The notes under the pieces are model-generated. The model was given only the letters and a program-made list of their open reading frames with translations. It made no database searches and had not been told where the DNA came from. A DNA stretch of 64,000 nucleotides from Escherichia coli. Its GTDB lineage: Bacteria; Pseudomonadota; Gammaproteobacteria; Enterobacterales; Enterobacteriaceae. The translations under genes were made by a program, and so were the position numbers. Location: assembly GCF_011045215.1 (NCBI RefSeq), contig NZ_CP049201.1. One strand, 5' to 3'. Shown here in pieces: positions 4,727 through 53,283 of this stretch; positions within the stretch are counted from its first letter, which is position 1, and each line of letters opens with the position of its first letter.

Positions 4727-5581
4727 ATGGATGCCCTTAGCCGTTTGTTGATGCTTAACGCTCCACAAGGAACGATCGATAAGAATTGCGTGTTAGGAAG
4801 TGACTGGCAGCTTCCACATGGTGCCGGGGAATTATCGGTTATTCGTTGGCATGCGTTAACGCAAGGAGCGGCGAAGCTGGAAATGCCGACGGGGGAGATT
4901 TTTACATTACGCCCGGGAAATGTGGTCCTGCTACCACAAAATTCAGCCCATCGCCTGAGTCATGTCGATAATGAATCAACCTGTATTGTCTGCGGCACTC
5001 TTCGGCTGCAACATTCGGCGCGTTATTTTTTAACGTCTTTGCCGGAAACGCTGTTTTTAGCACCGGTTAACCACAGCGTAGAATATAACTGGCTGAGGGA
5101 GGCGATCCCGTTTTTACAACAGGAATCCAGATTGGCAATGCCGGGAGTGGATGCACTGTGTAGCCAGATCTGCGCTACATTCTTTACCCTCGCGGTGCGT
5201 GAGTGGATTGCACAGGTTAATACTGAGAAAAACATTCTCAGTTTGCTTCTGCATCCACGTCTTGGTGCGGTAATACAGCAAATGTTGGAAATGCCAGGAC
5301 ACGCCTGGACCGTCGAATCGCTGGCCAGCATCGCCCACATGTCCCGGGCAAGTTTTGCCCAGCTTTTCCGTGATGTTTCCGGAACCACGCCGCTGGCTGT
5401 ATTAACAAAGTTGCGTCTACAAATAGCGGCCCAGATGTTTTCCCGGGAAACGCTCCCTGTTGTGGTGATCGCTGAGTCAGTAGGCTATGCCAGTGAATCA
5501 TCTTTTCACAAGGCGTTTGTCCGCGAGTTTGGTTGTACTCCGGGAGAATATCGGGAAAGGGTCAGACAGCTTGCACCCTGA
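4727..5581 (+). CDS. rclR: RclR, AraC-family redox-sensing activator of rclABC
   Basis: 284-aa ORF, AraC HTH at the C-terminus (SIAHMSRASFAQLFRDVSGTTP...ESVGYASESSFHKAFVREFGCTP); divergent from rclA. Confidence 0.95.
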   Translation: MDALSRLLMLNAPQGTIDKNCVLGSDWQLPHGAGELSVIRWHALTQGAAKLEMPTGEIFTLRPGNVVLLPQNSAHRLSHVDNESTCIVCGTLRLQHSARYFLTSLPETLFLAPVNHSVEYNWLREAIPFLQQESRLAMPGVDALCSQICATFFTLAVREWIAQVNTEKNILSLLLHPRLGAVIQQMLEMPGHAWTVESLASIAHMSRASFAQLFRDVSGTTPLAVLTKLRLQIAAQMFSRETLPVVVIAESVGYASESSFHKAFVREFGCTPGEYRERVRQLAP

Positions 5582-6107
5582 ATAAAACCGCCAGAAATCA
5601 GGGCAAAGATAATCCGCATTCCGGGAGTTGTGAGCCTTTCAACTATTTCTATTTCCAACGGTGGTTTGGGCTTTATATATTTTTTTCTGATGGACTCTAG
5701 CTCAGTTTTTAAATAAAAATGCAAACTAAATTGTTTCAATTAAATAAAATCCCGACTATTACTTGATACGTGATTATTGTCGGTGATTTTTTTGTACACC
5801 ATCAGTGTATATCTCAACAACCCCTGAATAAGTAGCTCTGAATAGGTATAAGGGATGTAGCCATTTTTAAATGGATTTCTTATGCCAAAAATGATCGTCG
5901 ATTTCCCCATAAAATGTGAGCGATGCCGAAAGAAATAAAATTAGTTATTGCATTTGACGTTTGGATGAAAGATTATCATTTGTCATACAAATGAGGGGTG
6001 GTATGTTGCTAGCCAATTAAAAAAGAACGCCATATTTATTGATGATTGATCCCCCGGTGGGGGGAAACATCGGGCATAAATGGGCATGAAGTAATGGAGT
6101 ATTAGTT

Positions 6108-9195: not shown

Positions 9196-9864
9196 TTACT
9201 GCCCAGAGTTTTGTTGGTATTCATCTACCATTTTTTTGACAAGGCAAAACATTACAGAAATTACAATGCTTATAAAAAATCCCAGAGCTAGGTAAATGGC
9301 AGCAGGGTATTTATTTTTTATTTCTGGTGAGCTTATAGTTACACAGCCATCACCGTTTGGATACAATGACCAGTTCCTGGTCAGGTATATCATTTTTGTA
9401 TAAAGCTCACTGTTAATTGCTGAAGGCGTTTGTATCTCATCGAGAACTTGCCTGCCATTATGGTATTCTGACGCATACCATTTGATAATAGACGCCTGCA
9501 CGTGAGATATTTCCGCTTCAGCAGTTGGTAAATCTCTCTTATCTCCTGACCATTCCAGCTTTATTTCTCTGTTCTTGACATCTGGGCTGGTGTGAAAAAA
9601 TGTAGTAATTCGCTGAATAACATCTTCAGTCATTGTGGTCTGACAGGCAAAGTTATTATTGCTATCACAGTTAACAAGTATACCTGGCGTTGTCTGGTTT
9701 ATTTTTAGGCTGTAAATCACTTTTATATTGTCTTTATTGATATACAGAAACAACAGCACCATAGCCATACATATAGCCATAATAAAAAGGATAACACGAA
9801 TCTTTTTCTTCAGATAAAATAAAATCTCAATCAGATCGATATCCTGTTTGATTTGTTCACTCAT
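9196..9864 (-). CDS. ykgH: Inner-membrane protein YkgH (one N-terminal and one C-terminal hydrophobic segment)
   Basis: 222-aa AT-rich ORF; hydrophobic stretches at residues ~22-42 and ~190-210. Confidence 0.85.
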   Translation of the reverse strand: MSEQIKQDIDLIEILFYLKKKIRVILFIMAICMAMVLLFLYINKDNIKVIYSLKINQTTPGILVNCDSNNNFACQTTMTEDVIQRITTFFHTSPDVKNREIKLEWSGDKRDLPTAEAEISHVQASIIKWYASEYHNGRQVLDEIQTPSAINSELYTKMIYLTRNWSLYPNGDGCVTISSPEIKNKYPAAIYLALGFFISIVISVMFCLVKKMVDEYQQNSGQ

Positions 9865-10057
9865 AATATATCCAGAAAATAAAATCTGCCGCAGATAAAT
9901 GAATTAATAGTCTGTATCAGGAATGTTCGGGTTAAATATCAGCAAAAAGCCAGCATCATGAATACTGGATATGAAGCATGAGAGTTACCTCAGTGTTTAT
10001 ATAAGGATTCGGCCCCCCTCTCTGGAACGGTAACTCTCAATCTGATCGGTTCCTGCG

Positions 10058-11746
10058 TTAGTTCACATCACGACTCATTTTTTTCGCTCTCACCGGCATC
10101 CCATTTGCCACAAAATATCCCGCCGTGCTCCTCGGCAACGCTTCCTGTCCACGAATCATGTCCGCTATTTTCTCGCCAATCATAATTGTCGTGGCGTTCA
10201 AATTCCCGGTGATAATCTGCGGCATAATTGACGCATCCACCACGCGCAGGCCTTCCAGCCCATGCACGCGGCCTTCGCCGTCAACCACGGACATCTCGTC
10301 GTAGCCCATTTTGCAGGTACCGCACGGATGGAAGGCGGTTTCGGCGTGATTACGCACGAACTCATCGAGCTGCTCATCCGTCTGACATTCCGTGCCGGGG
10401 CTGATTTCGCGGCCACGATACTGATCCAGCGCTGGTTGATGCATGATCTCGCGGGTGATGCGAATTGCGTCGCGGAACTCCTGCCAGTCCTGCTCGTGCG
10501 ACATGTAGTTAAACAGAATCGCCGGATGCTGGTGCGGGTCGCGGGATTTAATCCGCACATGCCCACGGCTTGGCGAGCGCATCGATCCGACGTGGCACTG
10601 GAAGCCGTGCTCTTTCACTGCATTCGAGCCGTTATAGTTAATCGCTACTGGCAGGAAATGGTACTGAATATTCGGCCACGCAAATTCCTCTCGGCTGCGA
10701 ATAAATCCGCCTGCTTCAAAGTGGTTGCTGGCACCAACGCCGGTGCCGCCAAACAGCCACTCCGCACCGATTTTCGGCTGATTCCACCACTGCAGGGCAG
10801 GGTAGAGGGAAACCGGTTCTTTGCACTCATATTGCAGATACATCTCCAGGTGATCCTGAAGATTTTCGCCGACGCCGGGTAAATCATGCACCAGCGGAAT
10901 ATCAAACTCCGCCAGCAGTTCAGCGCTACCCACGCCGGAACGTTGCAGGATCTGCGGAGAGGCGATCGCACCTGCACATAACAGCACCTCTTTATTCGCT
11001 GTCGCGCGGGTTGGAATGGTGCTGTCGCCTTCCTGCCACTCGACGCCCACCGCGCGTTTGCCGTCAAAAATGATGTGATCGGTCATAGCGTGAGTACGAA
11101 TGGTCAGGTTAGGGCGCGATTTGGCCTGATCGAGATAACCGCGCGCGGTACTGGCGCGACGGCCCTGCGGCGTGACGGTGCGATCCATCGGGCCAAAACC
11201 TTCCTGCTGATAGCCGTTGAGATCGTCCGTGCGCGGGTAGCCTGCCTGCACGCCCGCTTCAATCATCGCTTCAAACAGCGGATTGACGCCGGGTTTGGAG
11301 GTGGTGACGCTCACCGGGCCATCACCGCCGTGATAGTCGTTATCACCAATATCGCGCGTCTCGGCCTTGCGATAGTAGGGCAGGCAATCGAGATAGCTCC
11401 AGTTCTCCAGGCCGGGTTCTTTCGCCCAGTTGTCGAGATCCAGCGCGTTGCCACGGATGTAGCACATGCCGTTGATCAGCGACGATCCACCCAGGCCTTT
11501 ACCGCGTCCGCACTCCATGCGGCGGTTATTCATAAACGGTTCAGGTTCCGTTTCATAGGCCCAGTTGTAGCGTTTACCCTGTAGCGGGAATGCCAGGGCA
11601 GCGGGCATCTGGGTGCGGAAGTCAAAGCGATAGTCCGGGCCGCCCGCTTCAAGCAGCAGCACGGAGGTATTCGGATCTTCAGTCAGACGGGTAGCGAGAA
11701 CGTTGCCGGCTGAGCCGGCACCAATAATGATGTAGTCAAATTGCAA
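10058..11746 (-). CDS. betA: Choline dehydrogenase (GMC oxidoreductase, FAD)
   Basis: ORF 10058..11791; N-terminal FAD fold [18 protein letters not shown]. The position matching the canonical N-terminus (xQFDYIIIG) is TTG here, 5 nt after AGGAGG. C-terminus ...[10 protein letters not shown]. Confidence 0.9.
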
Positions 11747-24254: not shown

Positions 24255-24715
24255 ATGCCGGATGCGGCGTGAACGCCTTATCCGGCCTACAAGTGGCGCA
24301 AGAATTTGTAGGCCTGATAAGCGTAGCGCATCAGGCATTTGTCACCATTGCCTGATGCGGCGTGAACGCCTTATCCGGCCTACGAGTGGCGCGAGAATTT
24401 GTAGGCCTGATAAGCGTAGCGCATCAGGCATTTGTCACCATTGCCGGATGCGGCGTGAACGCCTTATCCGGCCTACGAGTGGCACGAGAATTTGTAGGCC
24501 TGATAAGCGTAGCGCATCAGGCATTTGTCACCATTGCCGGATGCGGCGTGAACGCCTTATCCGGCCTACGAGTGGCACGAGAATTTGTAGGCCTGATAAG
24601 CGTAGCGCATCAGGCATTTGTCACCATTGCCGGATGCGGCGTGAACGCCTTATCCGGCCTACGAGTGGCACGAGAATTTGTAGGCCTGATAAGCGTAGCG
24701 CATCAGGCAATTTGG
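24255..24715. repeat. REP/BIME array, about 5 tandem units of 93-94 bp
   Basis: Unit gccggatgcggcgtgaacgccttatccggcctacgagtggcgcgagaatttgtaggcctgataagcgtagcgcatcaggcatttgtcaccatt recurs starting near 24258, 24351, 24444, 24538 and 24631. Confidence 0.9.
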
Positions 24716-52373: not shown

Positions 52374-52449
52374 ATTCACCACCCTGAATTGACTCTCTTC
52401 CGGGCGCTATCATGCCATACCGCGAAAGGTTTTGCGCCATTCGATGGTG

Positions 52450-53283
52450 TCAACGTAAATGCACGCCGCTTCGCCGTCCGGCTACCAGAATAGCCTGCGA
52501 TTCAACCCCTTCTTCGATCTGTTTTGCTACCCGTTGTAGCGCCGGAAGATGCTTTTCCGCTGCCTGTTCGATGGTCATTGCGCTCGCCATATACACCAGA
52601 TTCAGACAGCCAATCACCCGTTGTTCACTGCGCAGCGGTACGGCGATAGAGGCGATCTTCTCCTCCTGATCCCAGCCGCGGTAGTTCTGTCCGTAACCCT
52701 CTTTGCGCGCGCGCGCCAGAATGGCTTCCAGCTTTAACGGTTCTCGTGCCAGTTGATAGTCATCACCGGGGCGGGAGGCTAACATCTCGATTAATTCCTT
52801 GCGTTCTTGTTCCGGGCAAAAGGCCAGCCAGGTCAGGCCCGAGGCGGTTTTCAGAAGCGGCAAACGTCGCCCGACCATTGCCCGGTGAAAGGATAAGCGG
52901 CTGAAACGGTGGGTGGTTTCGCGTACCACCATTGCATCAACATCCAGCGTAGACACATCTGTCGGCCATACCACTTCGCGCAACAGATCGCCCAGCAGTG
53001 GGGCCGCCAGTGCAGAAATCCACTGTTCGTCACGAAATCCTTCGCTTAATTGCCGCACTTTGATGGTCAGACGAAAACTATCATCGGAGGGACTACGCCG
53101 GACATATCCCTCTTCCTGCAGCGTCTCCAGCAGTCGCCGCACAGTGGTGCGATGCAGGCCGCTGAGTTCCGCCAGCAGCCCGACGCTGGCACCGCCGTCA
53201 AGTTTATTTAACATATTTAATAACATTAGACCGCGGGTTAAGCCGCGCACGGTTTTGTATTCCGTCTGCTCATTGTTCTGCAT
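52450..53283 (-). CDS. mhpR: IclR-family activator of the mhp operon
   Basis: ORF 52450..53397; start placed at ATG 53283 (MQNNEQTEYKTVRGLTRG), 277 aa; an alternative ATG lies at 53295. Confidence 0.9.
   Translation of the reverse strand: MQNNEQTEYKTVRGLTRGLMLLNMLNKLDGGASVGLLAELSGLHRTTVRRLLETLQEEGYVRRSPSDDSFRLTIKVRQLSEGFRDEQWISALAAPLLGDLLREVVWPTDVSTLDVDAMVVRETTHRFSRLSFHRAMVGRRLPLLKTASGLTWLAFCPEQERKELIEMLASRPGDDYQLAREPLKLEAILARARKEGYGQNYRGWDQEEKIASIAVPLRSEQRVIGCLNLVYMASAMTIEQAAEKHLPALQRVAKQIEEGVESQAILVAGRRSGVHLR

Follow-up and report, generated by a model that had tools for sequence, protein, structure and literature searches.

A seven-adenine run in the last codons of Escherichia coli betA and the ordinary long allele that it defines

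Two lengths of the choline dehydrogenase BetA are found in Escherichia coli. In K-12 MG1655 the protein has 556 residues (WP_001159094.1, b0311): the run near the end of the gene counts six adenines (A6), TGA follows in frame directly after ...RAKK without any six-residue tail, and the next 18 nt (GTCGTGATGTGAACTAA...) stay untranslated past the stop. The longer protein, of 562 residues, is that of the type strain ATCC 11775 (WP_001159135.1) and of other strains in which a seven-adenine run (A7) leads into an MSRDVN tail. O157:H7 also has A7 and 562 residues (e.g., WP_001159114.1), with a G to T change in the Val codon that makes the tail MSRDLN and with a TGA stop; just upstream of the run, O157:H7 strain F3113 differs (GCCAGTAAGAGCG), whereas TR01 has the common GCCGGTGAGAGCG. 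The RefSeq betA coding sequence is 1,689 nt long and annotated as an intact choline dehydrogenase in ATCC 11775, O157:H7, EM10-18-28 and PapM-32-1, and both alleles are annotated as intact in RefSeq and GenBank; the 562-aa betA is an ordinary, already known polymorphism. A literature search on the BetA C-terminus, swamped by matches to "beta", returned nothing relevant. Outside E. coli, the enterobacterial BetA orthologues and the oxygen-dependent choline dehydrogenase of structure 9lq0 share the full-length GMC-oxidoreductase fold, conserved through ...ANGxPVR; past PVR, the orthologues have no A-run and end in unrelated tails of 1 to 15 residues (e.g., R*, KRSFA* and KPAQR*), and 9lq0 continues with GKSL plus one residue.

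The window analyzed here is a stretch of 64,000 nt from E. coli (contig NZ_CP049201.1), which carries the following features at and around the betA 3' end:

10058..11746, minus strand: betA (choline dehydrogenase), 562-aa long allele, 1,689 nt, with its TTG start at 11744-11746 and its TAA stop at 10058-10060
10078..10084, minus strand: homopolymeric A7 tract (T7 on the plus strand), which covers Lys555 and Lys556 and contributes the A of the following ATG; K-12 has A6 at this polymorphic site
10075..10077, minus strand: latent TGA, out of frame in the window, which is the stop codon in A6 alleles
10061..10078, minus strand: six tail codons ATG AGT CGT GAT GTG AAC, coding for MSRDVN; only the A7 allele translates them, and in A6 strains they lie untranslated past the stop
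10058..10060, minus strand: TAA stop of the long allele, within a K-12-like 3' flank (..AACTAACGC); other A7 strains have TGA there (..AACTGACTC)
9950..9968, minus strand: terminator-like hairpin with a T-rich tail, about 90 nt past the betA stop, called by consensus match only

On the minus strand, the 3' end of the window gene reads ...CCG GTG AGA GCG AAA AAA ATG AGT CGT GAT GTG AAC TAA (ccggtgagagcgAAAAAAAtgagtcgtgatgtgaacTAAcgcagg), with the tail ATG at 10076-10078, AAC as the final sense codon (10061-10063) and the A7 tract in codons 555 to 557 of 562. This minus-strand sequence and the ORF translation agree exactly with the original prediction, which had pointed out an A7 run and an MSRDVN tail at this place; its statement that BetA ends shortly after ...VRAKK, one A fewer creating TGA (AAAAAATGA), also holds for K-12, as MG1655 is A6 and reads GCG AAA AAA TGA. 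The window betA is thus a long allele by definition, namely, A7 followed by in-frame ATG AGT CGT GAT KTG AAC and a stop. Both the domains and the operon context identify the product as BetA, a GMC-family choline dehydrogenase: PF00732 (GMC_oxred_N) covers residues 3-300 (E 8e-64), PF05199 (GMC_oxred_C) covers residues 393-524 (E 2e-41), structure 9lq0, a choline dehydrogenase, is matched at 1044 bits, betB lies directly upstream of betA, and PapM-32-1, which is collinear with the first 25 kb of the window, has its neighboring genes annotated ykgEFG, ykgH, betA, betB, betI and betT. Translation starts at a TTG placed 5 nt past AGGAGG. The ORF list gives 577 aa because it opens mechanically at the first start codon following a stop, here an upstream TTG, while 562 aa and 1,689 nt are the RefSeq betA lengths in relatives. 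In a panel of 17 sequences (the window, 15 loci and ATCC 11775), TTG is the start in all 14 of those whose start was printed (the window and 13 strains), and in ATCC 11775 too. A run of seven is in itself unremarkable, the window having 8 A/T runs of that length and 72 of at least 6.

Compared with the described forms, the window shares with K-12 MG1655 the gene, the order betI-betB-betA beside betT, the TTG start and, the run excepted, the 3' flank over the 101 nt compared. With ATCC 11775 and the other A7/MSRDVN strains it shares A7, the 562-aa length and an identical C-terminus; however, ATCC 11775 stops at TGA rather than TAA, has a different mosaic gene body and carries an ipbA/hyxR island downstream instead of ykgH. 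O157:H7 matches the window in run and length and differs from it in tail and stop. The particular combination in the window is A7 on a K-12-like flank (...GTGAACTAACGC, TAA), as opposed to the AACTGACTC and TGA of the other A7 strains examined.

Allele frequencies were counted over 5,426 complete RefSeq E. coli genomes, with word-11 blastn for the A7 31-mers. Megablast queries of 37 nt for A7 were discarded, since they went unmatched even for the existing O157 haplotype, most likely through low-complexity masking that left no 28-base seed; they were replaced by queries with a long unmasked flank or by word-11 blastn. The A6 30-mer (GCCGGTGAGAGCG-A6-TGAGTCGTGAT) was exact in 3,964 records, the A7 31-mer with G in the Val codon (MSRDVN) in 511 and that with T in the Leu codon (MSRDLN) in 445, which makes about 956 A7 records and places about 4,920 of the roughly 4,925-4,934 matched records in one of the two classes. 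Classification by run and G/T single-nucleotide polymorphism (SNP) from identity bands gave about 3,524 A6-G, 444-453 A6-T, 511 A7-G and 445 A7-T records, and the two 31-mer searches agree. Therefore, A7 is the minority allele, at 19 to 20% of complete genomes against about 80% for A6. It occurs in the O157:H7 strains sampled, EDL933 and TW14359 included, where the haplotype is MSRDLN. The oddity that the original prediction had implied for the tail does not hold, because 511 complete-genome records, including the type strain, contain the exact A7 and MSRDVN 31-mer; likewise, the comparison with other E. coli betA ends that it had proposed found MSRDVN in many reference BetA proteins, such as the 562-aa protein of ATCC 11775. 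Two rarer endings were also seen: strain D8 (L006) has A7 with an MSCDLN tail, and strain M2021-10044802/2-E (L012) has A6 with ...RVKK, owing to GCG to GTG just before the run.

The original prediction had left two possibilities for the tract, a slippage-type length polymorphism or a sequencing error, and it is the former that stands. An error would mean that the true sequence is A6 and K-12-like with one artefactual extra A. Such a reading could draw on the flanks, which are identical to those of K-12-type A6 haplotypes, and on the complete genomes: none of the 5,426 matches the window haplotype exactly over 101 nt or 64 nt, the 64-nt query finding 2,542 records at 98.4% and all twelve matches listed spanning 63 nt, i.e., A6, which taken alone would fit a private error. 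However, 18 public contigs, drawn from independent assemblies, encode the exact 562-aa window protein (EEY3527756.1, EFN7309703.1, EFN7353066.1 and EFN8637438.1; UPI0013DE60D4, entered as "choline dehydrogenase [Escherichia coli]"), and the identical A7 and GTGAACTAACGC DNA is present in three fetched loci, L097 to L099 (GCA_910665095.1, GCA_013049485.1 and the Logan assembly of ERR3329057). Across the 4.7 kb compared, 20-21 sites separate each of L098 and L099 from the window, which marks them as different strains. Nor does the assembly look error-prone: in about 60 kb compared with PapM-32-1, the nearest complete relative (99.2% over 25 kb), all net indels fall between genes, no gene is frameshifted, and gaps within coding sequence are confined to a compensating pair in lacZ. 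With A7 itself present in about 956 complete-genome records, we consider it extremely improbable that the seventh A is artefactual; the independent identical assemblies and the purely intergenic net indels effectively exclude sequencing error as its source. The haplotype of A7 with this flank is rare, absent from the complete RefSeq genomes and present in draft and read-derived assemblies. Two other homopolymers differ between the window and PapM-32-1 in the rclR-ykgE intergenic region, T7 versus T6 at 5680-5686 and G6 versus G7 at 6053-6058.

It seems very probable, and we hold it with high confidence, that the window carries an ordinary long betA allele which arose by homopolymer slippage at no essential cost to the enzyme. 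Under this explanation, the short A:T homopolymer in the last betA codons would let replication slippage, which we infer as the mutational mechanism, convert a run of 6 bases into one of 7 or the reverse, probably on more than one occasion. With A6 the frame would meet TGA right after ...RAKK and give the 556-aa K-12 form; with A7 it would take in six further codons, MSRD(V/L)N, before a TAA or TGA 18 nt on. Both lengths would then be maintained by stable, lineage-associated inheritance at about 80% and 20%. The distribution of run lengths over flanks bears on recurrence. Seven of the eight combinations of A6/A7, the G/T SNP 12 nt downstream and TAACGC/TGACTC are present in the 17-sequence panel, and all four combinations of run and G/T are common in the complete genomes. 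Only 2 of 207 downstream nt distinguish ATCC 11775 (A7) from ST131 (A6); ATCC 11775 and EM10 (A7) closely resemble ST131 and EcPF14 (A6); and between the window (A7) and EJN001 (A6) there are three differences in about 400 nt, of which the run is one. Since run length varies in this way between near-identical flanking haplotypes, recurrent slippage is probable, with at least two independent changes as the simplest reading.

Recombination, rather than repeated slippage, could lie behind some of the combinations of run and flank because betA is strongly mosaic. Among the 5,426 complete genomes, the window gene finds at best 98.8% identity, and 1,240 records reach only 90-95%. In 100-nt bins, the window is closest to O157 TR01/D8 over the first 1,300 nt or so, then to EJN001/PapM-32-1, and around the run to K-12/EJN001; this switching of the nearest relative along the gene is, as judged from the alignments, a signature of recombination. 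Strain 09-00049, K-12-like up to the run and O157-like beyond it, is explained by recombination, whereas the contrasts between ATCC 11775 and ST131 and between the window and EJN001 are harder to explain in that way. For polarizing A6 against A7, the genome-contig scan returned 80 loci from other Enterobacteriaceae, Pantoea, Pseudomonas and Moraxella, none of them from Escherichia. Parsimony over three local haplotype groups seems to favor A7 slightly as the ancestral state (two losses versus three gains). The closest loci of the scan were two from Pseudocitrobacter (L016 and L017), whose BetA has 96-97% amino acid identity as against at most 95% in the other genera returned, and this may reflect exchange of the bet locus between genera.

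The position of the tract would account for the tolerance of its length changes. It lies past the end of GMC_oxred_C at residue 524, and the 80 orthologues from other genera, all of which lack the A-run, are conserved up to ..PVR and then add 1-15 variable residues for totals of 554-568 aa. Because the tail is thus beyond the conserved fold, in a segment of varying length among orthologues, run-length variation in betA is probably neutral, as far as sequence position and tail variability can indicate. When run lengths from 4 to 10 were modeled on the window flanks, 0, 3 (NES) or 6 (MSRDVN) residues followed the lysines of the run, so that a stop always came within six codons and the enzyme core was never lost; together with the location past the GMC fold, this is why we see no essential cost to the enzyme. 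The 18-nt shift of the stop also touches nothing else, as almost 200 nt lie between betA and the end of the next downstream gene, ykgH, at 9864, and the hairpin at 9950-9968 is probably the operon terminator, which the run length would leave unaffected.

Three further readings would give the tract a function. One takes it as a contingency tract, with frequent within-lineage switching between BetA isoforms or expression levels; the run is indeed a homopolymer whose length probably changed more than once on near-identical backgrounds. Yet a tract of only 6-7 bases in the last codons cannot switch betA off, with the core intact at each modeled length, and the genome records point to stable inheritance: 362 records share the exact O157-type A7 62-mer, the sampled O157:H7 strains are all exact, and beside 3,114 records with the exact K-12-type A6 36-mer there are only 6 one-difference variants. 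The records therefore reveal neither the on/off placement nor the high-frequency variation within a clonal lineage that characterize contingency loci, and phase variation has, in our judgment, scarcely any chance of being correct. Programmed recoding, in which RNA polymerase slippage or a ribosomal frameshift at the A-run would yield both C-termini from one allele, is hardly better placed and very unlikely, though it may occur at trace level. A-runs are known slippery sites, as in dnaX and IS elements, and if tRNA-Lys shifted by +1 on AAA AAA A in the A7 allele, it would bring TGA into frame and the protein would end as in K-12. However, E. coli RNA polymerase slips efficiently at roughly 9 or more bases, above the seven present here; a G precedes the run, which is therefore out of register with the canonical X XXY YYZ motif; a cursory look revealed no stimulatory element; and the orthologues without the run offer no conservation argument. 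Nothing here requires recoding. A slightly larger, though still small, chance goes to the proposal that the tail or the choice between A6 and A7 is selectable, e.g., through membrane association, C-terminal proteolytic stability or low-level slippage giving mixed C-termini, in which case selection, not neutral slippage, would lie behind the split of about 80:20 and the repeated length changes. Returning to harmless homopolymer slippage as the preferred explanation, its biological weight is small, and the locus is a tidy case of a last-codon homopolymer drifting harmlessly where all frames stop within a few codons. For annotators and variant callers that use the K-12 reference, it means that a 562-aa BetA should not be flagged as a frameshift or a homopolymer error.

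Several other features were observed around betA and elsewhere in the window. The region downstream of betA (9196-10057) is a variable junction, occupied by ykgH in the window, K-12 and PapM-32-1 and by an island with ipbA (a fimX-like invertase) and hyxR in O157:H7, ST131, EcPF14 and ATCC 11775; the downstream sequences diverge about 60-100 nt past the stop. Just 3' of the betA stop lies a perfect 11-nt inverted repeat at 9979-9989 and 10029-10039 (TGAGAGTTACC and GGTAACTCTCA, 39 nt between the arms), whose betA-proximal arm is kept in nearly all strains compared. At about 52443-52454 the window lacks some 1.8 kb that PapM-32-1 has between mhpR and lacI, a segment with genes for an MBL-fold hydrolase and a GlxA-family regulator. 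Finally, at positions 24256-24714 a 93-nt unit made of REP-like palindromes is repeated in tandem 4.9 times (a BIME-type array, 98% matching), and the equivalent region of PapM-32-1 is annotated "hypothetical protein".
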